Shown here: positions 4 to 63,339 of the stretch, piece after piece | Layout: each line of letters begins with the position of its first letter | Numbering within the stretch: the first letter of the stretch is position 1 | Source: an uncultured Eubacteriales bacterium | GTDB taxonomy: Bacteria; Acidobacteriota; Aminicenantia; Aminicenantales; Aminicenantaceae | DNA: 64,000 bases | Assembly: GCA_964648465.1 (NCBI GenBank) | Contig: CAZYMU010000001.1 | Coordinates: 56,230-120,229, forward strand | Direction: 5' to 3' | Program-made: the position numbers and the translations under genes | Notes under the pieces: generated by a model | What the model was told of the DNA's origin: nothing | What the model saw: the letters and a program-made list of their open reading frames with translations, nothing else | Database searches by the model: none

Positions 4-2829
4 ATGCCGGAATATGAGTTTACAATTCGATACTTGCATGTGCCTTTTGGTTCGGACATATGTCATTACATGAAGGAGAAAGGTGAGAAGGTGATTGTCC
101 AGGAAAAGTCAGATAAAAATACATGGACATGGTTTCCTGATAAGGCAGGAGCTTACGCAATAGGGGTTGTTGTCACTGATGAAAAAGAAAGAGCTGAAAT
201 AGAAATCCCTTTTATAATCGAGGAGAAAGAGAATTTTCGCATTGAATGGTGGCAGAACCATATAGATTTAAAACAGTCTTCTTTGGTTAAGAATTTGAAA
301 TGGAGATCTGTAGGGCCTTGGGAAATAAGCGGCCGTATCACAGATATTGCTGTGTCGAAAAGGAACCCTTATGTGATTTATGTTTCTTCAGCGTATGGAG
401 GAGTGTGGAAAACTGTAAATAACGGGACAAGCTGGGAACCAATATTTGATAACGAATCTTGCCTGAGTATTGGAGCCATTGCAGTAACAACCTCAGATGT
501 TGATATTATTTGGTCGGGAAGATTAGATGCAGATATGGAATTAACAGGTGAAGAACCTCAGGATATTATCTGGGCAGGAAGTGGCGAGAACAATGCTAGT
601 AATGGCTCTACCGCAGGAACAGGTGTTTTTAAATCAATAGACGGTGGGAACTCGTGGCAAAATGTAGGCTTAAATGACTCCAATCATATAGGTCGTATTA
701 TCATACATCCGGATAACCCGGACATCGTTTATGTTGCTGTGATGGGCCATCTTTTTACTCCAAATGAAGAAAGAGGATTATTCAAGACAGAAGATGGAGG
801 AAATACTTGGAATAAAATACTTTTTATAAATGATAACACAGGAATTACGGATGCTGTCATGGATCCTGATAATCCCGATATTCTTTATGCAGCCGCATGG
901 GAAATGAAACGCAAAGCATGGAATTTTATCGAAAGCGTCGAAGGAAGCGGTATATATAAAACAACAGACGGCGGAGAGACTTGGAAAAAATTGACAAAAG
1001 GATTTCCTGAGGGAAAACATGTAGGCCGAATTGGACTAGATATAGCTGCTTCTAACTCCAGCATTATCTATGCGATTTTGGATAATCGGGCCTTAAGAGC
1101 AAAACAAGATTCGGATGATGAAGAACATAAAATTACTGTAAAGAATTCGGCTGTAGATCAGGGAAAAGAGAAAAATATTATAGGGCCTGAAATATATAGG
1201 ACTTCCGATAATGGAGAAACGTGGAAAAAAACCAACAAAGATTACATTGATGGTTTTTATAATTCATGTGGATACTCTTTTGGCCAGATCAGAATCGATC
1301 CAAAAAATGAAAATAAAGTATATATTCTTGGTGTTCCGTTAATGATTTCTAGAAACAGCGGAGAGACATATGAATCTATTGGAAAAATCCGGCTTCAGAG
1401 AGGGCATCATGCTCTCTGGATTGACTCAAATAATCACAATCACTTGATAGAAGGTAATGATGGGGGATTAAATTTTTCCTATGATGGAGGGAATACCTGG
1501 CAGGAAGTTAACAGCATTCCTGTTGGCCAGCTCCAATCAATAGCCTATGATATGGAAGAACCGTATAATATATACGGTGCCGTACATGATAATGGAGTTT
1601 ATTGTGGGTCTCATAGAGGAGTGCAAGGAATATCCAATGCTTGGAAGGAGATATTAGGAGGGGATGTTGTCTGTGTTCAGGTCGACCCCGAGGACTCGAA
1701 CATTATTTATGCAGAATATCCATCAGGTAATGTTTTCCGTATAGAAAGGCGGGAAGGAACGTACAAGAATATCAGTCCTAAGACTGAATTTAATGAATCC
1801 CATTTAAGGTTTAGCAGAAGGGCTCCGATTTTGATCTCGCCCCACAACCGCTTTATTATTTATCTAGGTGCTAATAAGCTGTTTAAATCCTACGACATGG
1901 GAGAGCACTGGATTTCTATTAGTCAAGATCTTACGACAAACCCTGAACATGGAAGTATTACTTACGGCTGTATTGTTACGATATCTGAATCACCCGTTGT
2001 CCCTGGCCTGATATATGTAGGTACAGATAATGGAAATGTTTGTGTGACTAAGAATGGGGGAGTTACATGGGAAAAAATAATAGAGGGACTTTCTGCTAAT
2101 AAGTGGGTTTCATGGGTTGAGGCTTCGAATTTTGATGAAGGCACTGTGTATGTTTCTTTAAGTGGATATTACCATGATGATTTTAATAAATATCTTTATA
2201 AGTCTGTTGATTATGGAAAAACTTGGGTTTCAATAGCAAATAACATACCTTGTGGTCCTATTTGTGTTATCAAGGAAGATCCTAAAAATGAAAGAATACT
2301 CTATGTAGGAACGGATATGGGAGTTTACGTTTCCATTGATGGGGGAGCATCGTGGTCGACTCTTGGATCAGGCCTTCCTGCTGTTTATGTAACTGATATT
2401 GCAATTCATCCCAGGGACAATGATATTATTATAGCTACTAAAGGCCGTGGTGTTTATGTGATGAATGTTGAAACGATTCAAGAATTTAACCTGGATATTA
2501 AGGAAAAGAAGGCCCATCTCTTTGCTATTAAACCTGTCTATATAGATAGAAACTACCCTGAGTTAGAACCTGAGGCGAAGATATATTATTACTTAAGAGA
2601 AAGTAGAACGATAACTGTTTCTATTATCGATGATTCGGGTGAAATGATAAAAGAAATAGAGGAAGATGGTGATGCAGGATTTAATTTGATAACGTGGGAT
2701 CTTACTGTAGACAGAGAAGGTAATAAGGTTCAAATAGTCAATCCTGGTAAGTATCGGATTGAATTAAAGTCAGGTTTTCTAAAGTTAGACGGGAAACTAG
2801 AAATTGTAAATCGTTTTCCAAATGTATGA
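4..2829 (+). CDS. BNR/Asp-box repeat beta-propeller protein (sortilin/Vps10- or GH74/Ycf48-like); possibly 5'-truncated by window edge
   Basis: 941-aa ORF with at least 9 recurring S-x-D-x-G-x-T-W Asp-box motifs (SIDGGNSWQNV, TEDGGNTWNKI, TTDGGETWKKL, TSDNGETWKKT, SYDGGNTWQEV, VTKNGGVTWEKI, SVDYGKTWVSI, SIDGGASWSTL). It starts 3 nt from the window edge, so the true start may lie upstream. Confidence 0.6.
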   Translation: MPEYEFTIRYLHVPFGSDICHYMKEKGEKVIVQEKSDKNTWTWFPDKAGAYAIGVVVTDEKERAEIEIPFIIEEKENFRIEWWQNHIDLKQSSLVKNLKWRSVGPWEISGRITDIAVSKRNPYVIYVSSAYGGVWKTVNNGTSWEPIFDNESCLSIGAIAVTTSDVDIIWSGRLDADMELTGEEPQDIIWAGSGENNASNGSTAGTGVFKSIDGGNSWQNVGLNDSNHIGRIIIHPDNPDIVYVAVMGHLFTPNEERGLFKTEDGGNTWNKILFINDNTGITDAVMDPDNPDILYAAAWEMKRKAWNFIESVEGSGIYKTTDGGETWKKLTKGFPEGKHVGRIGLDIAASNSSIIYAILDNRALRAKQDSDDEEHKITVKNSAVDQGKEKNIIGPEIYRTSDNGETWKKTNKDYIDGFYNSCGYSFGQIRIDPKNENKVYILGVPLMISRNSGETYESIGKIRLQRGHHALWIDSNNHNHLIEGNDGGLNFSYDGGNTWQEVNSIPVGQLQSIAYDMEEPYNIYGAVHDNGVYCGSHRGVQGISNAWKEILGGDVVCVQVDPEDSNIIYAEYPSGNVFRIERREGTYKNISPKTEFNESHLRFSRRAPILISPHNRFIIYLGANKLFKSYDMGEHWISISQDLTTNPEHGSITYGCIVTISESPVVPGLIYVGTDNGNVCVTKNGGVTWEKIIEGLSANKWVSWVEASNFDEGTVYVSLSGYYHDDFNKYLYKSVDYGKTWVSIANNIPCGPICVIKEDPKNERILYVGTDMGVYVSIDGGASWSTLGSGLPAVYVTDIAIHPRDNDIIIATKGRGVYVMNVETIQEFNLDIKEKKAHLFAIKPVYIDRNYPELEPEAKIYYYLRESRTITVSIIDDSGEMIKEIEEDGDAGFNLITWDLTVDREGNKVQIVNPGKYRIELKSGFLKLDGKLEIVNRFPNV

Positions 2830-2865
2830 AATCTGATAAGATATAAACAGAAAGGAGATTTTATT

Positions 2866-3411
2866 ATGAATAGAAATGAAGCTTTAGAACTTGTTAAAAA
2901 ATACCTCAAAAATAAAAACCTCGTAAAGCATTCGTTATCAGTTGAAGCTTGTATGAAAGCAATGGCAGCCAGACTCAACAAAGATGTGGGAAAATGGGGA
3001 CTTGCAGGACTTTTACATGATCTTGATTATGAGATAACAGAAAAAGATCCTGATCTCCATACAGTTGAGACTGTAAAAATTTTAAAAGAGCTTGGTGTGG
3101 AACCTGAAATTCTACGTACTATTCAAGCCCATGCAGGAAAAGTTCCCTGTCAAAGTGAAATGGAATGGTCGATTTTTTCTATTGACCCATTGACAGGTCT
3201 TATTGTTGCTGCTACTTTGATGCATCCAAGTAAAAAAATAAAAGAGGTAGACCTTGGTTTTGTGAAAAGAAGATACAAAGAAAAGAGTTTTGCAAGGGGT
3301 GCAAAAAGGGAAGAAATTGAACAGATCAAAAATATAGGCCTTGATCTTGATGACTTTATAACAATTTGTTTGGAAGCAATGCAGGGAATTGATAAAGAAC
3401 TTGGATTCTGA
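2866..3411 (+). CDS. HD-domain (HDIG-type) phosphohydrolase
   Basis: 181 aa. Carries H...HD metal-binding motifs (KHSLSVEACM ... GLLHDLDYE). A good RBS (AAAGGAGA) lies 7 nt upstream of the ATG. Confidence 0.55.
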   Translation: MNRNEALELVKKYLKNKNLVKHSLSVEACMKAMAARLNKDVGKWGLAGLLHDLDYEITEKDPDLHTVETVKILKELGVEPEILRTIQAHAGKVPCQSEMEWSIFSIDPLTGLIVAATLMHPSKKIKEVDLGFVKRRYKEKSFARGAKREEIEQIKNIGLDLDDFITICLEAMQGIDKELGF

Positions 3412-3619
3412 TAAGTGTAGAAAGATTAAAAAAATTTTACAAAGTAATGTTGGTGTAGGCAGGTTCGATTCATAAATAATTCGCATAAGATAGATAAAAA
3501 GCTAAAATTTTCATTTTGCTTTGACATTGGGATGGATATGTTTGACATCGAATATTTCATGTGCTATAAATTCTTATCCTGAAAAAAGAAGAATTTCAAG
3601 ACTTAATGTCGAGGGTTTC

Positions 3620-12735: not shown

Positions 12736-14688
12736 CTATTTAAGTATATTGGTTTTTATCCCAAGCTCGATATAGCGCCCTCTCCATGGAAATCCGGGTT
12801 CAGAATAAATATAATAGTCAAAGACATTAGTGATTTTGATAAACAATTCAGTTCGTTTAAACTGGAAGGAAATAATTGTATCCAGGTTAAAATAAGAATG
12901 AATATCCAGCAGTTCATTTGATTGATAATCGAGCCAGGATGATGAAGATGCTGCCAGGCCCATAATTACAATCCTGAATCGTTGGGAAGGGTAGATAGTA
13001 CAATCAAAATTTAAGCTGTGCCTTGGGAGAGCATCTAGTGGCCGGTCGTCACTTTTGTTCTTGTGGTCAAGGAAAGTGTAGTTTATAGTTGTTGAAAGCC
13101 ATGGAAAAGCTTTTTGAAATTGAAGTTCAAATCCATTAATATAAGCTTCTGCGATATTAAAATATCTACGGCGGAAATCGAACTCCGGAAGACGGAGGCT
13201 GTCTATCATGTCTTTGAAGCTGGTCATAAAGACAGAGCCTGTAAGGAAGAATATTTTATTGTATGTAAAACCTAATTCGCAGTTACTTCCTGATTCACTC
13301 AGGAGGTCTGGGTTTCCTGATGAACTCGAGTACATGGAACGCATAGAGGGAAATTTTGATTTCTTGGAAAAGGAGAGATGGAGCTCTATATATTCCAAAG
13401 GGGAATATTTAAGTCCGATAAGAGGATTTACTTTTGATGCATTTTTTCCAATAAACTTGTCTAGATAATCATAACTTAATCCCACTACAAGTTTCCATCT
13501 CTTGAAAAAAGATATATGATCTTCGATCCCGGCTGAAAATGTAGCTTGGTTGTATTTATCCCAGGATTCTCCCTCATCATCCTGAGTTCGAGCTACATCT
13601 CTCTTATAATTGATGCTGAATTTTAATGAGTTAGAAGAACTCATAGCAAGGTCTGCAAGAGTGAAGAGACCTAAAACAGAGTTGTCAAAAGTGCTTTCGA
13701 AGAGGCGCTGAATCATTTTTGGATCTTTGAATTGGTCGAGAGTATTGTCATAGTGGACAAAATAACCTCGAAAGCGGAGTGTGGATTTTTCCCCCAGGGC
13801 AGTATAACCACCTGCATTCAGTGTATAACGGTCCCAGTTTTTAAAACGCCAGTACCGTGGTTTATAAGCATCAAGTTGTGATGGCATAGCATAATTGGAT
13901 TTGTATATTCCTCCGTTAAAGAGAATTTCAGTGCTGTTTGATGGGTAATAGTAAATTTTTGTATTAAGATTTATTCTTTCATATTCTGTGTTTGACCTTT
14001 CGATCCTATTCCTTTCATCTTGATCTGGGAAATAAAATCCATCTGAATCCTGATAAAGCATATTTCCTGCAAAGGCAAAGCGCTTCAGTTGAAATACTGA
14101 ATTTAAACCCAGGCTGCGTGTATTTTTTTCTCCATATGATGTGTGAAACGATAGGGTTGGTTTGACAGAAGGTCTGCTTGTTATAACATTAACTATTCCA
14201 CCTAGGGTATTAGGACCGTATAGAACAGATGATGGCCCTTTGGTGAGTTGAAGGGAATCAATCCCATAGGCGGATATTGTTTTTAGATCAAACGTACTGT
14301 AGTAAGGCTCATAAACAGGAATCCCATCGATTAACAATGCAATCCGTTTTGAATCCATGCCCCTGAGCTTTAACGTGTATGTGGATTTATCTCCAAAAGT
14401 CACCATCACTCCTGGAGCGTATCTAATAGCTTCTGAAAGGTCGAGTGGTTTCATGTGTTCAATCTTTGTATGACCCAGTCTTGTTACCGTTGAAATAGGG
14501 AGGTCTCTAGGAGCTTCGGCTACTACAAGAATTTCTTCCGTAATCTTTAGTGTCTTTTTTGATTTTGTCTTCTTTTCATCTTCTTTTTGTTTTTCTTGGG
14601 AAAAAGTTAAACAAGGTAATAAAATTAGTGCCCAAATGACAAAATTAATAATGGTTTTTTTGAGAGGGTGATTTGATGAATTATTCAT
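12736..14688 (-). CDS. TonB-dependent outer-membrane receptor
   Basis: 650 aa. Has a signal peptide, an N-terminal plug region (ISTVTRLGHTKIE...DLSEAIRYAPGV) and a long beta-barrel with repeated aromatic-rich strands. Confidence 0.7.
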   Translation of the reverse strand: MNNSSNHPLKKTIINFVIWALILLPCLTFSQEKQKEDEKKTKSKKTLKITEEILVVAEAPRDLPISTVTRLGHTKIEHMKPLDLSEAIRYAPGVMVTFGDKSTYTLKLRGMDSKRIALLIDGIPVYEPYYSTFDLKTISAYGIDSLQLTKGPSSVLYGPNTLGGIVNVITSRPSVKPTLSFHTSYGEKNTRSLGLNSVFQLKRFAFAGNMLYQDSDGFYFPDQDERNRIERSNTEYERINLNTKIYYYPSNSTEILFNGGIYKSNYAMPSQLDAYKPRYWRFKNWDRYTLNAGGYTALGEKSTLRFRGYFVHYDNTLDQFKDPKMIQRLFESTFDNSVLGLFTLADLAMSSSNSLKFSINYKRDVARTQDDEGESWDKYNQATFSAGIEDHISFFKRWKLVVGLSYDYLDKFIGKNASKVNPLIGLKYSPLEYIELHLSFSKKSKFPSMRSMYSSSSGNPDLLSESGSNCELGFTYNKIFFLTGSVFMTSFKDMIDSLRLPEFDFRRRYFNIAEAYINGFELQFQKAFPWLSTTINYTFLDHKNKSDDRPLDALPRHSLNFDCTIYPSQRFRIVIMGLAASSSSWLDYQSNELLDIHSYFNLDTIISFQFKRTELFIKITNVFDYYIYSEPGFPWRGRYIELGIKTNILK

Positions 14689-14861
14689 TATGATATCTCC
14701 TTTTCAAATACGGAAGGCAAAACTGTTTCCCGTTTTACCCTATCGGTCAAAGACCATGGCTGAAGAGCTTTAGTACCCTTGACTCGGAGAAAGCGATAAA
14801 TCTAGCATAAAATAAATATATTGTAAACAGAATGGTTTTTGCTTAGCTTCTGATAAATATT

Positions 14862-28475: not shown

Positions 28476-30459
28476 TTTCCAGTTCTTTTAATTTAAGTTT
28501 TTTTATTTCATCCCTGAGTTTTGCCGCTTTTTCAAATTCAAGATTTTTTGCGGCTAACCTCATCGAATTCTCGAGCTTTTCGATTCGCTGTTTTCTCTCC
28601 TGGGGAGAAAGATAGATATCCTTGTCTTCAGAGATTCGAGAATAGTCAAAATAGTCTCTTTCATAGATGCTGGTTAAAACCTCATCGATTCTTTTTTTAA
28701 TAGATTGAGGAGTGATATTGTTTTTTTTATTGTACTCCTGTTGAATTTGTCGCCTTCTGTTTGTCTCGGCAATCGCCTTCCTTATAGAGTCTGTTATGAC
28801 ATCAGCATAAAGAATAGCTTTACCTGAAACATTTCTGGCTGACCTGCCAAAAGTTTGAATGAGGGAGGTTGCAGAACGGAGAAATCCTTCTTTATCCGCA
28901 TCGAGTATCGCAACCAGAGATACTTCTGGAAGGTCAAGCCCTTCTCTCAGCAAATTTATTCCTATCAGGGCGTCAAATTTTCCCTTCCTTAGGTCTCTCA
29001 ATATTTTAACACGGTCCAAAGTGTCGATTTCAGAATGAAGATATCGGACATAGAGTCCGAATTCGTGATAATAACGTGTGAGATCTTCAGCCATCTTTTT
29101 TGTCAGAGTTGTTACCAAAATTCTCTCGTTTTTCCCTGCCCTTTCTGTGATTTCAGACATCAAATCATCGACTTGGCCTTTAACAGGACGCACTTCAATT
29201 TTTGGATCTGTAAGGCCTGTAGGTCTTATAATCTGCTCTATTACCCTTTTACCTGCCTTCTGTAGTTCATAATTTCTTGGAGTAGCTGAGACATAAAGGA
29301 CTTTGTGAATCCTGCTTTCAAACTCGTTAAAATTCAATGGTCTGTTATCAAGGGCAGATGGAAGCCTGAAACCATGATCAATAAGCGTCTGTTTTCGTGA
29401 ACGGTCTCCATTATACATCCCACCGATTTGCGGGATAGTGACGTGTGATTCATCGATAATCATAAGGAAATCTTGAGGAAAATAATCAAGAAGTGTGAAT
29501 GGGGGTTCTCCCGGCTTTCGGAGGCTTAGATAAAGAGAATAATTTTCTATGCCTGGACACCAGCCGAATTCCCGCAGCATCTCAATGTCAAAAAGAGTTT
29601 TTTCTTCAATCCTGTTGGATTCTATGATTTTTCCCTGTTTTTTAAAGAAGCACACACGTTCTTCAAGTTCTTTTTCTATGGAGGAAATAGCATAATCAAG
29701 AATGTCTGGAGGTGTTGAGAAATAAGTCCTTGGGTAGAGGACGATCTTATCAAAAGAGTCCAGTGTTTTGCCAAGAAGAGGGTCTAGACTAGAGATGGCT
29801 AATATTTTGTTATCTCCAAGTTCTATCCTGTAAGCATAGTCCTCATAAGAAGGAAAAACATCGATAATATCTCCTCTGACACGGAAACACCCCCTTTTAA
29901 AATCACCTTCTTCTCTGTTATATTGAATCTTGACGAGATTCTCCAGAATATTTTTCCTTGATATGATTTGGTTTACTTCAAGAGGAATACTCAGAGAATA
30001 ATATGTTTGTGGCGAACCTATTCCATAGATACAAGAAACAGATGCAATGATCGCTACGTCTTTTCGCTGGAAAAGAGAGTTTGTGGCGCTGAGTCTTAGG
30101 CGGTCTATCTCATCATTTATTGTAGCTTCTTTTGATATGTAAATATTGGAAGCAGGGATGAAGGCTTCGGGTTGGTAATAATCGTAATAGCTGACAAAAT
30201 ATCCTACAGCATTTTCTGGGAAAAAGTGGCGGAATTCCTGGTATAGTTGAGCAGCTAGGGTTTTGTTGTGGGAAATGACAAGAACAGGTTTGTTAATTTT
30301 CTCTATGATATTTGCTATTGTAAAAGTTTTCCCAGAGCCTGTGACTCCCATTAAAACTTGATGTTTAATATTTTTATTTAACCCATCATGCAGTTCCTGG
30401 ATTGCCCTTATTTGATCTCCTTTTGGCTTGAATTCTGAGTGGAGTATAAATTTTTTCAT
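28465..30459 (-). CDS. uvrB: excinuclease ABC subunit B
   Basis: 664 aa. The helicase motifs (GVTGSGKTF, DESH) and a C-terminal UVR coiled-coil domain are present. Confidence 0.9.
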   Translation of the reverse strand: MKKFILHSEFKPKGDQIRAIQELHDGLNKNIKHQVLMGVTGSGKTFTIANIIEKINKPVLVISHNKTLAAQLYQEFRHFFPENAVGYFVSYYDYYQPEAFIPASNIYISKEATINDEIDRLRLSATNSLFQRKDVAIIASVSCIYGIGSPQTYYSLSIPLEVNQIISRKNILENLVKIQYNREEGDFKRGCFRVRGDIIDVFPSYEDYAYRIELGDNKILAISSLDPLLGKTLDSFDKIVLYPRTYFSTPPDILDYAISSIEKELEERVCFFKKQGKIIESNRIEEKTLFDIEMLREFGWCPGIENYSLYLSLRKPGEPPFTLLDYFPQDFLMIIDESHVTIPQIGGMYNGDRSRKQTLIDHGFRLPSALDNRPLNFNEFESRIHKVLYVSATPRNYELQKAGKRVIEQIIRPTGLTDPKIEVRPVKGQVDDLMSEITERAGKNERILVTTLTKKMAEDLTRYYHEFGLYVRYLHSEIDTLDRVKILRDLRKGKFDALIGINLLREGLDLPEVSLVAILDADKEGFLRSATSLIQTFGRSARNVSGKAILYADVITDSIRKAIAETNRRRQIQQEYNKKNNITPQSIKKRIDEVLTSIYERDYFDYSRISEDKDIYLSPQERKQRIEKLENSMRLAAKNLEFEKAAKLRDEIKKLKLKELEIVS

Positions 30460-30544
30460 TCTATCAGAAGTTTTTATGAATAATCATATTATAACAGTAA
30501 ATTAAGCTAATCGTAATCAGTAAATTGCTCTCCTGGATTATTAA

Positions 30545-30668
30545 TAAAAATTGCTGATATGTCATAACAATGAAACCTAGATTTGATCATTTTCCATGAA
30601 AATCTTGGAACTAGTTTATCCTCTATCATATCGATAATATAATTTAAATCTATTATCAGCAATTTTTA
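30545..30668. mobile_element. MITE-like 124-bp unit (copy U1) with perfect 15-bp terminal inverted repeats TAAAAATTGCTGATA / TATCAGCAATTTTTA
   Basis: Read directly from the sequence. No coding capacity. An approximately 85% identical inverted copy lies at 31660..31783. Confidence 0.55.
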
Positions 30669-30670
30669 CC

Positions 30671-30799
30671 TTACAGGCGAGCCGATCTTACAGCATCTGC
30701 TGCGTTACAGCGCATTCGTGGTGAAGGACCACAACTTCATGCGCTGTGCCTTGCATCTGCAGCAAGCTTGACTCGTGAATCATCCAGGACTTCCTGGAT
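30671..30799 (+). repeat. conserved structured repeat module (M5), copy A; second copy at 49234..49350
   Basis: About 90% identity to 49234..49350. Contains nested perfect hairpins (CAGCGCAT[..GTGGTgaaggACCAC..]ATGCGCTG and CTTGCatctgcaGCAAG), and in this copy a terminal ATCCAGGacttCCTGGAT hairpin. Confidence 0.5.
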
Positions 30800-30971
30800 T
30801 ATTAATAAAAATTGCTGAAAGAATTAATATGATATAAACTAATTTTGATTGTTCTCCATGATATGCTCAGAACTAATTTATACTATACTCTAGGCTAGAT
30901 AATAACCTAACAGCGTGAAGCATATGAATTTTAGGGGATGGAGGAAGCGACATTGAAAGATTTAGACTTTT

Positions 30972-31130
30972 TTCTGAGTCAATCTTCGAGGGAACCAGAG
31001 AAAGTCTGGCCTGATGGATGTGTGAGCACTGTATAATCAATGATGCGGTGTTAATAGTGGCTCGCGGACATTGTGGAGTTGCTTAAGATAAACATGCGGA
31101 GTTCCATCAGAGCCGAGAAGATCAGGGAGG
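30972..31130 (+). repeat. conserved repeat modules M1-M2, copy A (inverted homolog at 62044..62207; M2 also at 49115..49165)
   Basis: About 85% identity to the reverse complement of 62044..62207. Contains a conserved GTGTGAGCACTGTATAATCAA block with a TATAAT hexamer. Confidence 0.5.
31032..31037 (+). promoter_or_regulatory. conserved -10-like TATAAT hexamer inside repeat module M1
   Basis: CACTGTATAATC is conserved exactly in the inverted copy at 62139..62144. No strong -35 was found. Confidence 0.3.
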
Positions 31131-31166
31131 AAGGTGTGAAAATGCTGAAGATTTAAAATGATTTTA

Positions 31167-31547
31167 TTATTTAATGTGAGAAACCATTTTTACAGAGCCT
31201 TTGAATTGTGCTCCATCCATTATTGAAATGCGGGAAGCTGATATATCACCCGTCATTTGGCCTTCTTTTTCAATAAAGACTTTTCCATTTGCAAATATAT
31301 TTCCCTCAACAAGACCCTTAATTGTGATGTTCTTTACATGAATGTCAGCATTGACTTCGGCTTTTGATCCAACGGTCAAATTGTTATTTTCCATGTTTAT
31401 TTTCCCCTGGAACTGCCCTTCTATTATCAAATCTTCACTGGTGTATAGTTCGCCTTGAAAATTCAGGGTTAGCCCAAAGCGAGCGATTGTTTTTGGGATT
31501 ATTTCTTCAACAAAACTTTGATTTTCTTTTTTGTCTGGATCCAGCAT
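31167..31547 (-). CDS. bactofilin-family cytoskeletal protein (DUF583 beta-helix)
   Basis: Degenerate beta-helical repeats are present (LIIEGQFQGKINM, LTVGSKAEVNADIHV, ITIKGLVEGNIFANGKVFI, GQMTGDISASRISIMDGAQFKGSV). The tracked ORF extends to 31637, but its first about 30 codons lie in the repeat element, so the internal Met start is preferred. Confidence 0.55.
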   Translation of the reverse strand: MLDPDKKENQSFVEEIIPKTIARFGLTLNFQGELYTSEDLIIEGQFQGKINMENNNLTVGSKAEVNADIHVKNITIKGLVEGNIFANGKVFIEKEGQMTGDISASRISIMDGAQFKGSVKMVSHIK

Positions 31548-31659
31548 TATACCTTCTGTTGAAATAATGTGCAGATTATAGATTGCTCCCTTTAATATGT
31601 CAACAGAATTATAATACAGAAGTTCCAGCAGAGCCAAGAAGATCGGCTCGCCTGTAAGG

Positions 31660-31783
31660 TAAAAATTGCTGATAATAGATTTAAATTAGATCATCGATAT
31701 GATAAATGATAAACTAGTTCTGAGGGTTTCATGGGGAACGATCAAAACTAGGTTTAGTTGTTATAATTTATCAGCAATTTTTA
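31660..31783. mobile_element. MITE-like 124-bp unit (copy U2), inverted relative to U1
   Basis: Same 15-bp termini. Its interior is the reverse complement of U1 at about 85% identity. The junction sequence GATCGGCTCGCCTGTAAGG matches the reverse complement of the U1/M5 junction. Confidence 0.55.
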
Positions 31784-31887
31784 TGAATAGCCCACCGCAA
31801 TTATCATGTTGATATCTATTCCATTATATTTGATAATTATATTGTAAACTTTTATCAAGGTATTTTCGTCTAATAGGGGAAAGAAGA

Positions 31888-33312: not shown

Positions 33313-34893
33313 ATGAGTTTAAGAATTTCACGTATTATGATGTCGGTTTTTATCCTACTGGTATCATTTTCCCTACTGTCGCCGGTATTATATGCCGACA
33401 ATATACAGGACAAGGATACCAAATCCTATAATCAGGCTTATAACCTCATTGCTGAGGAAAGATGGGAAGAAGCCGCAAAAGCCCTTGAAAAATTTATTAG
33501 CACGTATTCCAACAGCGCTTATGTGGATGATGCCCGGTTCTGGCAGTGTTATGCCAGAGAGAAACTGGAACAGTCCTTAGAGACGGTTTTCAACTGCTAT
33601 GAGGATTTCATCAAATCTCATCCGAAAAGCAAATGGGTAGATGATGCCCAGTCCAATATGATTCGCATCGCCCATCAACTATCTAAGCAAGGTAATCCCA
33701 AATATCAGCACTTAGTCCAATCCATTTATGAGAGCCAGGAAGATGAGATTAAACTGGTTGCCCTCTATGCACTGGAAGATATGGGCAATGAGGAGGCCTT
33801 AGACGCGATCATAAAACTTTATGATGATGCGGCAGATGTCAATCTCCGCAGCAGGATCATCAATATGCTCGAAGATTTTGAATCACCCAGGGCGCTTGAC
33901 AAACTTGAGGACATTGCTCTTAATGAACCCGATTCTTCCTTACGCCGCAGGGCTGTTTATGTTATTGCGGATACCGAAGAGAAGGATGCCATCAATATTC
34001 TAAAAAAGGTCATCGAGACCGATTCAGACACCAAGGTCAGGAAAGCTGCTCTCAATGCTTTAGGAGATACGGAAGATCCCTCTGTTATCCCTATTCTGAG
34101 TGAGATCGCCATAAATGATAAGAATGTGACTCTGGCAAAAGCTGCGGTATATGCTCTGGAGGACGTCGAAAGTCCAGAAGTGCTTCCCGCGCTCAAAAAG
34201 ATATTAAAAGAGGCCAAAGCCATCGAGGTCAAAAAGGCTACCCTTTATACACTTGAAGACATCGAAGAGGCAGATGTACTTCCCCTCTTGAAGGAAGTTG
34301 CCCTGAAGGAGAGCAACCTGGAATTACGCAAGGCTGCGATATACACTATCGGGGATATTGAAAGTAAAGAGGTCCTTGAAATCCTGAAGGAGATTCTGGA
34401 ATCAACCGATGAACTCAGCCTCAAAAAAACAGCCCTGTATTCCATTGAAGACTATGAAGGCAAAGAAGCAGAAAAGATCCTCTATGATACAGCCCTAAAC
34501 TCCCCTGATGAAGAACTGGCTAAGACCGCTGTTTATGCCCTTGCCGATCTTGTTGAAGATGAGGGTGATCCGGCGTTCCTCATGGAAGTCTATAAAAAGT
34601 CAAAGTACTTCTCCGTCCGCAAAGCGGCTTTGTACAGTATTGAAGATGTAGAAGGACCCAAAGCTGTCAAGGCACTGGCAGATGTATTAAAAAGCGAAAA
34701 AGACCCGCAGCTTCAGGTAGTCATTATCAGAGCTCTTGGTGAAACAGAAAGTGACGAGGCAGTTCCTATACTGCTTGAGATTGCCCTGAAGGATAAGAAT
34801 CGCAAGGTCAGAGCTGAAGCAGTATCAGCTTTAGGAAAGATCGGGACACCAAAAGCACGGGAAGCCCTTATGAAGATTCTTGAGAAAAAGTAG
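33313..34893 (+). CDS. secreted HEAT-repeat (PBS-lyase/E-Z type) protein
   Basis: 526 aa. Has a signal peptide and about 14 tandem 31-aa repeats of the form A-x-Y-x-L-E-D-x-E-x-x-E-V/A-L-P-x-L. Confidence 0.6.
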   Translation: MSLRISRIMMSVFILLVSFSLLSPVLYADNIQDKDTKSYNQAYNLIAEERWEEAAKALEKFISTYSNSAYVDDARFWQCYAREKLEQSLETVFNCYEDFIKSHPKSKWVDDAQSNMIRIAHQLSKQGNPKYQHLVQSIYESQEDEIKLVALYALEDMGNEEALDAIIKLYDDAADVNLRSRIINMLEDFESPRALDKLEDIALNEPDSSLRRRAVYVIADTEEKDAINILKKVIETDSDTKVRKAALNALGDTEDPSVIPILSEIAINDKNVTLAKAAVYALEDVESPEVLPALKKILKEAKAIEVKKATLYTLEDIEEADVLPLLKEVALKESNLELRKAAIYTIGDIESKEVLEILKEILESTDELSLKKTALYSIEDYEGKEAEKILYDTALNSPDEELAKTAVYALADLVEDEGDPAFLMEVYKKSKYFSVRKAALYSIEDVEGPKAVKALADVLKSEKDPQLQVVIIRALGETESDEAVPILLEIALKDKNRKVRAEAVSALGKIGTPKAREALMKILEKK

Positions 34894-35160
34894 TGAAAAC
34901 AATGCGAAGATTCCTGAAAGAATATACTTCAGCAATTTATCCGTCTTTTTTGATCTAAAAGGAGGCTGTCCGCTGTTCTGCCTGGGCGATAGTGATGATC
35001 CCAGAGCTCTGAATGCGTTGATAGAGATCATTCGGAACAAATAGCTTTCAGTCAATATGCCCCTTTGTATTGACAAAAAGTGAAATTGCCTATAAATTCT
35101 ATTTCTGAGTTTTTGGATGCTGGAAAGAAGGCACAGTAAATGTGTAATCAAAGAGAAAGA

Positions 35161-48842: not shown

Positions 48843-49111
48843 TTCCTAATGATATCAGGCAGATTTATTGTATGCTAAGTTAGAAATAACTGGGTTGTGT
48901 TTATAGTTAATGTGAATAAGCCAGTTTTATATATTTTTAATGAAAAAAGTTGATTTTTAATTTAAATATAGTATAATAAAAGTAAGCTTTGTTAAGCTGG
49001 CTGGACAGAGTTTAAACCCTTCTTTATTATCCCCTTTTTGCTTGTTTTCCCCAAATCAAAACAGCCAGCATTATATTTTTTGCTAAGTAATCCAGACTAA
49101 CTCCAACCCAG

Positions 49112-49350
49112 CGCTGCTTAAGATAAACATGCGGAGTTCCAGAAGAGCCGAGAAGATAGAGAGGAAATGGCGTTAAAATCTTAGTGGAGCGCAAACATGC
49201 ACTCAAATTCATCTATTATCAGCAATTTTTACCTTACAGGCGAGCCGATCTTACCGCATCTGATTCGTTACAGCCCATTCGTGGTGAAGGACCACAACTT
49301 CATGCGCTGTGCATTGCATCTGAGGCAAGCTTGACTCATGAATAACCCAG
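49112..49350 (+). repeat. modular intergenic repeat, copy B (modules M2-M3-TIR-M5), 110 bp upstream of the C69 dipeptidase gene
   Basis: Matches 31078..31125 (M2), 30654..30790 (TIR+M5) and the reverse complement of 61968..62100. Confidence 0.55.
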
Positions 49351-49459
49351 GTTAAATATTTCTTATATATCATTTTAAAATAAATAAGAAAACAAAACCA
49401 ATTGAAAAATGTGTTAAGTTGACCTCATACTTTTCTCTATGTTATAAGCTTATTGGATT

Positions 49460-52275: not shown

Positions 52276-52451
52276 ACCTGAATTAGTCATAAATTATGCC
52301 TACACCAATATTTATTTTCCATTATATCTGCTAGTTGCGTTGATTTTTCCTTCAGCATAACATTTAACTCCTTTTCCTTGCAATTCTTTTCCTCTATATC
52401 AGCATTCTTTATGAATAATCCAGGTTAATTAATATTTTAAATTATGTTATA

Positions 52452-61919: not shown

Positions 61920-61967
61920 GAAAAAAAAGCACTAAGACTAATTAACCTGTATTATTCACCCAAAGGG

Positions 61968-62207
61968 TAAAAATTACTGATAATAGTTTTAATAAGATGA
62001 ATTTGAGGGCATGTTTGCACTCCACTAAAATTTTTAACGCCATTTCCTCCCCGATCTTCTCGGCTCTGCTGGAACTCCGCATGTTTATCTTAAGCAACGT
62101 AATGATGTCCCCGAGCCACTATTAACACCGCCACTTTGATTATACAGTGCTCACACATCCATCAGGCCCGCCCGACTTTGTCCGGTTCCCTCGAAGATCG
62201 ACTCAGA
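61968..62207 (-). repeat. modular intergenic repeat, copy C (M1-M2-M3-TIR in minus orientation), forming the upstream region of the OPT transporter gene
   Basis: Its reverse complement aligns to 30972..31130 and 49115..49231. The conserved TATAAT lies at 62144..62139 on the minus strand. Confidence 0.55.
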
Positions 62208-62307
62208 TTTGTACAAATAGCCACGTTTCATTTTTTTTAATTGCGTGAAATCTAAAATTATGTTAAATAATATGTTAAATAAAGTGTGTAACTAGAGAAA
62301 GATAGAT

Positions 62308-63339
62308 ATGAGTTTAATTAATTGGTTCAAAGAAAGACTTTTTTGTGATTTAGCCATAGATCTTGGAACTGCCAATACTCTTGTTTATCTCAAAGGAAAA
62401 GGAATTATTGTTCAAGAACCTTCAATAGTTGTTGTTAACAGACAATCCGGCAAGGTGGAAGCTGTAGGGAAACAGGCAAAGGATATGTTAGGGAAAACTC
62501 CCTCTAGTATAGTGGCGATAAAACCTATGAGAGATGGAGTTATTGCTGATTTTGAGATTGCTGAGAAGATGCTTGATTATTTCATAAAAAAATCTACAAA
62601 CAACAGGAGTTTTTTAATCAGACCAAGGATTGTGATAGGAATACCGACAGGAATAACTCAGGTTGAAAGACGAGCGGTTAAAGACGTTGCCATGAGAGCA
62701 AAGGCTTCTGAAGTTTATTTGGTAGAACAACCAATGTCAGCTTCTGTAGGAGCAGAACTTCCCATTTCAGAGCCGACAGGCAATATGATCGTTGATATAG
62801 GAGGAGGGACAACAGATATCGCTGTCATTTCTCTTACTGGTATTGTTTATAATCATGCCATTCGTATTGCGGGAAATGAGATGGATGAGACTATCATCCA
62901 GTATGTTAAGAAAAAATACAATTTACTCATTGGGGAAAGGACTTCTGAACAGGTAAAGATGCAGATTGGCTCGGCTTATCCTTTGGATGAGCCAATGACC
63001 ATGGAAATAAAAGGAAGAGATTTAAGGGAAGGTATACCAAAAACTATTGTTATTGATGACCAGGAAATAAGAGATTCTCTTGAGGATACTGTAGTTTCCA
63101 TTATGGATGCTATCAGGCTTGCACTTGAAAAAACACCTCCTGAGCTTTCGGCAGATATAATAGACCGAGGGATCATTTTGACTGGTGGAGGGTCTCTTCT
63201 TAAAAATATTGATAAACGTATACGTGAAGAAACTCAGCTGCCAGTTTTTGTTACAGAAGATCCTCTAACTACCGTTGTCCTTGGTGCAGGCAAGATGCTT
63301 GATGATTTGGATTTATTAAAAAAGATTTCGTTAATCTAA
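62308..63339 (+). CDS. mreB: rod shape-determining protein MreB
   Basis: 343 aa. The actin-fold phosphate-1 motif LAIDLGTANTLVY and the other actin-fold motifs are present. Confidence 0.9.
   Translation: MSLINWFKERLFCDLAIDLGTANTLVYLKGKGIIVQEPSIVVVNRQSGKVEAVGKQAKDMLGKTPSSIVAIKPMRDGVIADFEIAEKMLDYFIKKSTNNRSFLIRPRIVIGIPTGITQVERRAVKDVAMRAKASEVYLVEQPMSASVGAELPISEPTGNMIVDIGGGTTDIAVISLTGIVYNHAIRIAGNEMDETIIQYVKKKYNLLIGERTSEQVKMQIGSAYPLDEPMTMEIKGRDLREGIPKTIVIDDQEIRDSLEDTVVSIMDAIRLALEKTPPELSADIIDRGIILTGGGSLLKNIDKRIREETQLPVFVTEDPLTTVVLGAGKMLDDLDLLKKISLI

Follow-up and report, generated by a model that had tools for sequence, protein, structure and literature searches.

A modular family of MITE-like repeats with a covarying hairpin in the intergenic DNA around an Aminicenantes bactofilin gene

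The window analysed here is a 64,000-nt stretch of an Aminicenantaceae contig (CAZYMU010000001.1, assembly GCA_964648465.1), in which a bactofilin gene on the reverse strand (31167-31547) lies beside uvrB. The first-pass annotation let this gene run into the right-hand of two repeats that bracket it, but the 156-aa TTG-initiated ORF behind that impression is a longest-ORF artefact: the conserved bactofilin starts at the ATG at 31547 and is 126 aa long (Pfam PF04519, Bactofilin, E=2e-24). Upstream of it lies a perfect sigma-70-type promoter, TTGACA-17-TATAAT (31603->31575; promoter scan 12/12). Gene and promoter form a conserved single-copy block on the reverse strand (31133-31605) that is 94% identical to the close relatives L015-L017 and has sharp ends at 31132 and 31605, the latter being the point at which homology with close relatives ends.

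The block is bracketed by two 124-bp units, previously described as an inverted pair in which each unit carries perfect 15-bp inverted repeats. Reading of the sequence confirmed this description: TAAAAATTGCTGATA occurs at 30545-30559 and 31660-31674, its exact reverse complement occurs at 30654-30668 and 31769-31783, and the copies lie in opposite orientation. Similarity extends past the units, giving arms of 169 nt (30534-30702 and 31626-31794) that are 85% complementary; by BLAST, the two arms are 88% identical over 151 nt. The shorter motif AAAAATTGCTGATA has seven matches in the window with at most one mismatch, compared with a mean of 0.22 in 100 shuffles, none of which reached seven. Five of these matches are exact and two carry one mismatch (30807 GAAA and 61969 TTAC). 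The earlier count of seven was therefore right and all seven lie between ORFs, as had been stated, but some of the start positions listed for them were off by one. What did not survive is the view that the 124-bp unit is an element with the 15-bp repeats as its termini. These repeats are subterminal: the repeat family begins 13 bp outside the unit, at CCTGG (30532), the left copy runs through a GC-rich module to 30788, and the right copy is a truncated element (31640-31796).

The complete element, here termed PX, spans about 257 bp on the forward strand (30532-30788) and carries a 13-bp terminal repeat, CCTGGATTATTCA, with the 15-bp repeat just inside it. Alignment of both ends of full-length copies defined the terminal inverted repeat pair 5'-CCTGGATTATTCA...TGAATAATCCAGG-3'. 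The parts follow one another in the order terminal repeat (30532-30544), 15-bp repeat (30545-30559), AT-rich body (30560-30653), inverted 15-bp repeat (30654-30668), 4-bp mini-hairpin (30668-30678), X, a GC-rich hairpin module of about 107 nt (hairpin at 30680-30773), and terminal repeat (30776-30788), with X and the mini-hairpin present at one end only, between inner and terminal repeat. Other members have a different head (E4) or an additional GC-rich module, ZY, of about 255-267 nt. The inner repeat varies among subfamilies and always matches its own inverted partner within one element. Seven sequence versions of it were found, all of them self-complementary and with the terminal repeat following at once. 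Matched inner repeats would be expected of transposase-binding sites that co-evolve, as well as of a stem. A perfect 12-bp terminal inverted repeat was seen in L029. Elements of 148, 257 and 456 bp are crossed only by mechanical ORFs of at most 70 aa and carry no transposase ORF.

Four family loci lie in the 64-kb window. At the bactofilin locus, a solo degenerate element end on the reverse strand (TATCAGAAGTTTTTATGAATAATCATAT, 30462-30489; 87.5% over 24 nt to the 28-bp terminus) is placed directly upstream of the uvrB start codon (30459) and is followed by the complete PX element. A 4-nt spacer, ACTT (30789-30792), separates PX from an abutting second element; such end-to-end stacking, 4 nt apart, is frequent, and similar layouts (CCACG-TTCT-CCTGG and the like) were found in L004, L006, L009, L010 and L014. 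The second element (30793-31132, forward strand) consists of a terminus with subterminal repeat (30793-30820, one mismatch), a P-type head and ZY (30918-31132). This ZY keeps only about the first 214 nt of the 267-nt module, its 99-nt Y half being cut down to about 55 nt, and the break is fused to the bactofilin 3' flank (...GGGAGGA/AGGTGTG). The untruncated composite, 456 bp long, is present in L015-L017. On the promoter side of the gene, a 26-nt forward-strand fragment of the Y part of ZY (31621-31646; 96% match to composite positions 227-252) is joined through a common 7 nt, AGATCGG (31640-31646), to the start of an inverted X. This marks the truncated right-hand PX copy on the reverse strand (31640-31796; 88% over 151 nt to PX positions 8-158), made up of the X start (31640-31659), the two subterminal repeats (31660-31674 and 31769-31783) and a degenerate terminal inverted repeat (31784-31796, TGAATAGCCCACC); the covariance model match over this copy covers 31613-31674. 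The three other loci are a member with the ZY 3' half, subterminal repeat, X and terminal inverted repeat between TTAA flanks (49109-49351, forward), at whose orthologous site L007 has an ORF of about 1 kb and a full P head in place of the window's Y fragment; the 148-bp E4 element (52277-52424, forward) with intact 28-bp-type ends; and a member with a 5'-truncated ZY and an X-less end (61946-62226, reverse; TTAA flank at 61942-61945), the latter consisting of terminal inverted repeat, small hairpin CCCAAAGGG and subterminal repeat with one mismatch.

Both kinds of evidence that the first-pass annotation had named for mobility, further copies and target-site duplications, were recovered. A repeat-gap-repeat scan yielded 14 loci, 12 in Candidatus Aminicenans sakinawicola, one in another Aminicenantes MAG and one by chance, a 13-mer pair inside a Legionella gene (L003). 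Copies with perfect inner repeats thus number at least 12 in Ca. A. sakinawicola, where half of the matches fall within about 350 bp of a contig end, and others occur in related metagenome contigs. X-bearing copies amounted to 38 in 29 sequence sources, some of them orthologous to each other. Extra copies (L052-L062) were reached via a protein-database search with mechanical ORFs crossing X and ZY, which returned only 4 and 6 small clusters, most of them one locus in many samples. Full-length PX copies at 10 other loci are 83-92% identical, and in an alignment of 11 copies and their flanks most proved full length, with similarity lost exactly outside the boundaries CCTGG...CCAGG. The flanks of the catalogued termini are mostly TTAA, CTAA or TTGA. 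Comparison with the 94-96% identical L007 (Ca. A. sakinawicola) revealed E4 as an insertion, with TTAA on both sides in the window and a single TTAA in the empty site; this is the one filled/empty pair. Perfect 4-bp duplications also flank other solitary copies (TTGA in L002, CTAA in L052), and several solitary, older copies have imperfect flanking repeats (TTAT/TTAA, TTTT/TTAA and ATAA/TTAA). The elements thus insert at TTAA-like sites and duplicate 4 bp, as is seen at E4. A 570-bp difference in L016 near 34980 was dismissed as an element since it is coding (HEAT-repeat gene).

The original idea of a non-autonomous, MITE-like mobile family is borne out by the multi-copy state, the terminal inverted repeats and the filled and empty site with its 4-bp TTAA duplication. 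Of the marks of a MITE, short length without a transposase ORF, terminal inverted repeats, target duplication with insertion polymorphism and dispersed copies are present, and an autonomous element with matching ends was not found in the sequences searched (below). Our verdict is a new MITE family, and it is probable that each of the two 124-bp units is the AT-rich 'head' of a member of this modular family, which populates the intergenic DNA of Aminicenantes (candidate phylum OP8).

A Pfam scan of the 53 larger, non-nested window ORFs (>=118 aa; secA, uvrC and uvrB were left out, being named from their translations) found no transposase, integrase, recombinase/invertase, Y1_Tnp, RAYT or IS200-like domain, in agreement with the earlier statement that the locus lacks a transposase or integrase. 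An autonomous partner with matching ends, which that annotation had proposed to seek, was not found in the window, L001-L046 or 459 kb of related DNA: terminus pairs 0.6-4 kb apart in L001-L046 and the window enclosed no ORF-bearing element with these ends, a tblastn search with the ISEcp1 transposase gave no match in the 459 kb, and three scans of viral contigs found nothing. The sole terminus-pair candidate, in L012, encloses an ABC ATPase and a 1553-aa protein and was discarded, as was a solo element end in L010 that precedes mgtE. Termini of the form 5'-CC...GG-3' and target duplications of 4-5 bp characterize the IS1380 family (PMC10045372), and such ends together with 4-bp duplications are a signature common to IS1380 and piggyBac (PMC10045372; PMC5718144). 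The ends and 4-bp duplications of the present elements match this type. Compared with the ISEcp1 ends from a plasmid record (CCTAGATTCTACGT and CCTAAATTCCACGT), the element ends have 10/14 and 9/14 identities, a similarity that is no more than suggestive, and CCTRRATT is common to their first 8 nt and those of both ISEcp1 ends (IRL and IRR). As no autonomous partner was found, the IS1380 assignment is one of end sequence and duplication length only; the elements would be moved in trans by an IS1380/piggyBac-type DDE transposase encoded elsewhere than nearby.

Read inward from the element end, X forms 35 pairs with 98% of cells paired, and 11 of these pairs have changed on both sides; shuffling gave 3.6 +/- 1.1 such pairs (0/500), and sliding the partner gave 0-4. 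On the opposite strand the helices are 87.5% paired, and RNAalifold gave -35.6 kcal/mol for the inward strand versus -18.7 kcal/mol. A covariance model of X recovered divergent copies in L036 and L044, whose helices are preserved although their sequences differ. Because the pairing is maintained by compensatory changes and G-U pairs occur on one strand only, X appears to be selected in single-stranded form, likeliest as RNA read inward from the element end. It may be a relic of the parent element's leader or, in elements that lie in front of a gene, a 5'-UTR hairpin. Hairpin-templated repair can likewise produce compensatory changes in a palindrome without selection, but it would not give a strand-specific G-U excess. 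ZY likewise folds better on one strand than on the other (-58.7 versus -30.0 kcal/mol; 95% versus 76% paired; 21% G-U), with few informative changes and 2 double changes in 73 pairs. ZY was rejected as a classical element with terminal repeats and target duplications of its own: its 13-16-bp end repeats (TGAATTTGAGGG.../...CCCTCAAATTCA) have CC inside and no flanking duplication.

The bactofilin gene itself had been suspected of having been mobilised by the element pair. The relatives contradict this: uvrB-bactofilin adjacency is kept in L018, L020, L028 and L029, whose bactofilins are 59-61% identical, and L018 and L020 have the gene beside uvrB without such repeats. Adjacency preserved at only about 60% protein identity argues that the gene was not mobilised, and comparison with relatives shows that this single-copy gene is resident beside uvrB, its ancestral place. 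The companion suggestion of a rearrangement-prone locus fared better, as the repeat arrangement at the two intergenic sites beside the gene varies among close relatives through insertions, deletions and element swaps; the flanks in L015-L017 (94%) are those of the window, but the elements are different ones, in direct orientation. Both intergenic regions of bactofilin have become landing pads for elements, and later deletions and element swaps at short common sequences yielded the present inverted pair. It is highly improbable that bactofilin is flipped by this pair as a DNA inversion switch or carried by it as a composite transposon. The 169-nt arms of 85% identity flank a 923-bp segment with bactofilin and its promoter and could support homologous inversion, yet the orientation of the gene relative to uvrB and an ECF sigma gene is constant in all relatives examined, which leaves no evidence of inversion; a simple inversion between the two arms was rejected on this ground. 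In addition, the flanking elements are direct, not inverted, in the closest relatives, synteny with uvrB is ancient, no invertase or other recombinase domain was found among the window ORFs by Pfam, and the right arm belongs to a truncated element that lacks an outer partner end.

It could also be held that the repeats are primarily structured non-coding RNA genes, with X and ZY as small RNAs and the 15-bp repeats as a further stem, that were copied around the genome and whose terminal repeats and duplications are secondary. The strong one-strand covariation of X and the strand preference of ZY favour this account, as do the gene downstream of X, which is co-directional with the folded sense in 19/25 cases (17/22 without orthologous duplicates) compared with 13/25 for the upstream gene, and the element that in L028 lies in sense orientation between the bactofilin promoter and start codon. 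We nevertheless regard it as unlikely. Rfam 15 gave no match over the repeats at the gathering score and only noise at E<=10; no conserved promoter or terminator was found, and an outward promoter in the element end is no general feature, a reasonable -35 being present only in the window's left copy. A sigma-54 promoter reading of TTGCTG was rejected by eye for its wrong GG-GC spacing. Within one composite element, the strand on which X folds best is the opposite of the one preferred by ZY, and terminal repeats with 4-bp duplications are not RNA-gene features. The one copy shown to be recently inserted, the 148-bp E4, has neither X nor ZY, so that mobility is independent of these modules. Mobility was originally to be doubted if the 124-bp unit were part of a conserved structured RNA. 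No conserved structure was found in the interior of the unit, whereas the X fused to it is a strongly covarying hairpin; this hairpin coexists with mobility and does not refute it. We give still less credence to a hairpin-dependent mechanism in which a Y1 (HUH) enzyme moves the repeats as single-stranded DNA, as in REP/BIME with RAYT or IS200/IS605-derived palindromes, and inserts them next to TTAA without true duplication. Such palindromic elements have hairpin ends and an associated Y1 transposase, and they lack terminal inverted repeats and duplications. Tolerance of G-T on one strand only is expected for a folded single DNA strand, and the single filled/empty site, which lies in TTAATTAA, is, taken alone, compatible with insertion 3' of TTAA by an element that bears its own TTAA. 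However, every subfamily conserves the 13-bp terminal inverted repeats, the Pfam scan of the 53 window ORFs showed neither a Y1_Tnp nor a RAYT domain, and the flanking duplications vary by copy (TTAA, TTGA, CTAA), which favours a real target duplication over a fixed element-borne tetranucleotide.

Within the MITE reading, what X does can be addressed tentatively, and we consider the following pair of options, taken together, possible at best. X could be a working part of the element, its pairing kept since only folded copies transpose; folded in one DNA strand or RNA, it would bring the inner 15-bp and terminal 13-bp repeats together. Or X and ZY could be new structured RNA classes that a bacterial piggyBac/IS1380-like MITE has spread and that neighbouring genes have recruited as 5'-UTR elements; this would agree with the orientation bias and with the copy that lies in the bactofilin leader of L028.

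Bacterial MITEs such as Correia/NEMIS of Neisseria, RUP and BOX of Streptococcus pneumoniae and ERIC of enterobacteria are small and non-coding, with terminal inverted repeats and short target duplications. The present elements resemble them in size (about 150-460 bp), absent coding capacity, terminal repeats, short target duplications and many intergenic copies, and also in modular or nested forms, in the presence of some copies in 5' or 3' untranslated regions and in the ability to fold into long hairpins. They differ in that one end is split, the 13-bp and 15-bp repeats being set apart by a hairpin of about 107 nt with strand-specific covariation, and in duplicating 4 bp at TTAA-like sites instead of TA. 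Their host also belongs to an uncultured phylum. In the literature on Aminicenantes we found no description of such miniature inverted repeats. With the IS1380 family (ISEcp1) they share the termini, the duplication length and the first 8 nt described above; unlike that family, they have no transposase gene and measure 150-460 bp versus about 1.6 kb, and we know of no hairpin module in ISEcp1 ends. Eukaryotic piggyBac shares the TTAA target, the 4-bp duplication and the CC...GG ends. Its ends combine a 13-bp terminal repeat with an inner repeat, with spacer lengths that differ between the two ends, and these unequal spacers are paralleled here by spacers of 0-1 bp and about 116 bp. Unlike piggyBac, the present elements are bacterial and non-autonomous, and their long spacer is a conserved hairpin; a relationship to piggyBac would be one of analogy only, through IS1380.

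These results define the exact boundaries of an abundant family of Aminicenantes mobile elements that had not been described before, and supply a repeat library for it. Such repeats break assemblies, many copies lying at contig ends, and they inflate ORF calls: the bactofilin ORF was drawn too long, and public databases contain several small proteins that are spurious. The family accounts for the differing intergenic DNA around housekeeping genes in close genomes. If the IS1380/piggyBac link holds, these would be bacterial TTAA-targeting MITEs, useful for tracing that superfamily, and the covarying hairpin offers a concrete case, open to testing, of selection on secondary structure inside a MITE.

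The repeats lie in an ordinary chromosomal stretch, in which secA, uvrC and uvrB (named from translations) are followed by repeats, a bactofilin gene (protein family PF04519 by Pfam), an ECF sigma/anti-sigma pair, a HEAT-repeat protein and tRNA-Gly, with central-metabolism genes and mreB farther along. Contigs of Candidatus Aminicenans sakinawicola (OP8) match the window at 91–96% identity, and the window therefore derives from a close relative of that organism. A molybdenum/tungsten cofactor riboswitch (14681–14801, minus strand; Rfam RF01055, 75 bits) precedes a TonB-dependent receptor gene; genes for molybdopterin oxidoreductase, MobA/MobB and aldehyde:ferredoxin oxidoreductase are close by. 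Self-comparison revealed four repeat loci built from a few modules (30449–31797, 49109–49351, 52277–52424 and 61946–62226); two adjoin cytoskeletal genes (bactofilin, 31167–31547; mreB, 62308–63339), probably by coincidence with only four loci.

The first-pass annotation had described two inverted 124-bp units with perfect 15-bp terminal inverted repeats around the bactofilin gene. The inverted copies were confirmed: TAAAAATTGCTGATA was read at 30545 and 31660 and its exact reverse complement at 30654 and 31769, within arms (30534–30702 and 31626–31794) of 169 nt and 85% identity. The 14-bp motif indeed recurs seven times in the window at up to one mismatch (five exact; shuffle mean 0.22), always in intergenic DNA. 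The unit and its ends, however, had been mis-drawn. Alignment of 11 copies with their flanks, most of them full length, revealed that similarity begins at CCTGG, 13 bp outside the 15-bp repeat, and in the left copy continues through a GC-rich module as far as ...GTGAATCATCCAGG at 30788. The real element, PX, is thus 257 bp long (30532–30788) and comprises a terminal inverted repeat (CCTGGATTATTCA), the 15-bp inner repeat, an AT-rich body of 94 nt, the inner repeat inverted, a mini-hairpin (CCTTACAGG), the X hairpin and the second terminal inverted repeat (TGAATAATCCAGG). In E4, a 148-bp relative (52277–52424), inner and terminal repeats are adjacent at both ends, and at 61946–61982, the left end of the locus near mreB, the mini-hairpin alone separates them, so X is an optional module placed exactly between inner and terminal repeats. 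A third module, ZY (approximately 255 nt), is carried within the head of the 456-bp composite element of the related loci L015–L017; the window holds it incomplete at 30918–31132 and 61992–62207, and as its 3′ part at 49109–49214. Public protein clusters P0001–P0010, 'hypothetical proteins' of 45–103 aa in metagenome annotations, are translations across X and ZY and likely represent spurious gene calls.

The suggestion that the repeats are MITE-like was correct: they form a real multi-copy family with terminal inverted repeats and 4-bp duplications. A repeat-gap-repeat scan that sampled one genome per species returned 14 loci, 12 from Ca. A. sakinawicola, many of them lying at the end of a contig, and one from another Aminicenantes MAG; the fourteenth, a chance match within a Legionella gene, was rejected. 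Copies are 83–92% alike, so most are old. E4 is missing from the orthologous site of Ca. A. sakinawicola (L007), where a single TTAA stands in place of the window's TTAA-element-TTAA; this insertion is later than the split from that organism. Other solitary copies carry perfect duplications of TTGA (L002) and CTAA (L052), and at several the flanks match at three of four positions only. Catalogued termini are mostly flanked by TTAA, CTAA or TTGA, and elements frequently stand end to end with 4 nt between them, as in CCAGG-ACTT-CCTGG at 30784–30797.

Ends of the form 5′-CC...GG-3′ with 4-bp duplications have been described as a signature common to prokaryotic IS1380 and eukaryotic piggyBac elements (PMC10045372; see also PMC5718144), and a TTAA target has been described (PMC10813416). 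For ISEcp1 (IS1380 family), a plasmid record gave CCTAGATTCTACGT and CCTAAATTCCACGT as the true ends; they share 10/14 and 9/14 positions with the family terminus CCTGGATTATTCAT, with CCTRRATT in common. An IS1380/piggyBac-type assignment from ends and duplication length is a lead, not proof, and we infer a transposase of this type. The reported absence of transposase and integrase held for the 53 larger, non-nested ORFs of the window, in which Pfam detected neither these nor a Y1 domain, and the search for a cognate transposase was negative in the window, in 459 kb of retrieved related DNA and in viral contigs.

The pair had also been proposed either to have mobilized or rearranged the bactofilin gene, whose annotated 5′ end was said to reach the right-hand repeat, or to mark a recombination-prone locus. 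Among 32 related metagenomic loci, uvrB still adjoins bactofilin in L018, L020, L028 and L029, where bactofilin is 59–61% identical, indicating that the gene is resident beside uvrB, not cargo, and that its relation to the unit had been misjudged. Its start is the ATG at 31547, behind a perfect sigma-70-type promoter; the longer TTG ORF, which extends to the repeat, lacks conservation, since close relatives are homologous only as far as 31605. The closest relatives (94%) share the window's unique flanks but differ in their repeats: L017 reads uvrB, E4-X, bactofilin, composite, ECF, and L016 has a composite on either side of bactofilin, every element being direct in both. The window reads uvrB, PX, truncated head-ZY, bactofilin, Y fragment with inverted truncated PX, ECF, and its junctions fall at short shared sequences (GGGAGGA/AGGTGTG near 31131; AGATCGG, 7 nt at 31640–31646, common to Y and the inverted X start). 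Insertions and deletions, together with exchanges among family members, thus gave rise to the inverted pair; comparison of the window with related loci gave no sign of inversion of the bactofilin gene. Such bracketing of a gene by inverted copies is seen more than once simply because elements occupy the spacers on both sides. In L004, inverted ZY copies (1775–2032, 3304–3572) also bracket an acyl-CoA dehydrogenase-like gene, seemingly split into two ORFs (2128–2688, 2695–3279). The uvrB start codon abuts a solo element-end remnant (30462–30489), and the nearby element end carries, in this copy only, an outward promoter-like site toward uvrB (30537–30565, minus strand; ATGACA-17-AATAAT, 10/12).

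At 49112 the window has just a 99-nt Y fragment where L007 (5990–7008) has an ORF of approximately 1 kb, on the minus strand as the window is oriented, and a full head, another repeat-associated, gene-sized indel. Elsewhere, the window at about 51095 lacks 429 bp, seemingly coding, found in L007 (3558–3987) between C69 peptidase and malate/lactate dehydrogenase genes, at a junction without family repeats. L016 (1699–2271) has approximately 570 bp of extra HEAT-repeat-like coding sequence relative to the window (about 34980) and L017, of which the window's minus-strand ORF 34831–35151 may be a remnant.

Within the 124-bp unit the 15-bp stem is the only conserved structure; it occurs in at least seven sequence versions across subfamilies, each self-complementary and each followed directly by the terminal repeat, a pattern compatible with co-evolution of binding sites as well as with a helix. 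X behaves differently: read inward from the element end, its strand folds into 35 pairs (98% of cells paired), and 11 pairs show double-sided changes versus 3.6 ± 1.1 in shuffled alignments (0/500) and 0–4 in slid controls. On the opposite strand, which is 87.5% paired, 76 G-U cells become A-C mismatches; RNAalifold gave −35.6 (z = −7.7) for the inward strand versus −18.7 (z = −3.5) for the other. A covariance model built on these X copies had three matches in L036, arranged in tandem, and a single match in L044 (bactofilin approximately 48% identical in these relatives); in all of them the helices are kept and sequences largely differ. The L036 tandem (2184–2777, spacing approximately 195 bp) lies just downstream of bactofilin in this distant relative, and its inner repeats all differ, each self-complementary. 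ZY folds much better on the forward strand, and its structure is plausible only, not established, since copies are 87–98% alike with only two double changes. No module matched Rfam, and an RNA role of the modules is putative.

The gene downstream of X in its folded sense is co-directional in 19/25 cases (17/22 without orthologous duplicates; two-sided binomial estimate approximately 0.02), with no such bias for the upstream gene (13/25). In L028 an element separates the bactofilin promoter from the start codon, in X's folding sense; together with the orientation bias, this is suggestive only, hinting at tolerance or use as a 5′-leader. The repeats make up a new family of MITEs, of the type with CC...GG ends and 4-bp duplications, that inhabits an uncultured phylum and carries a well-supported structured module.
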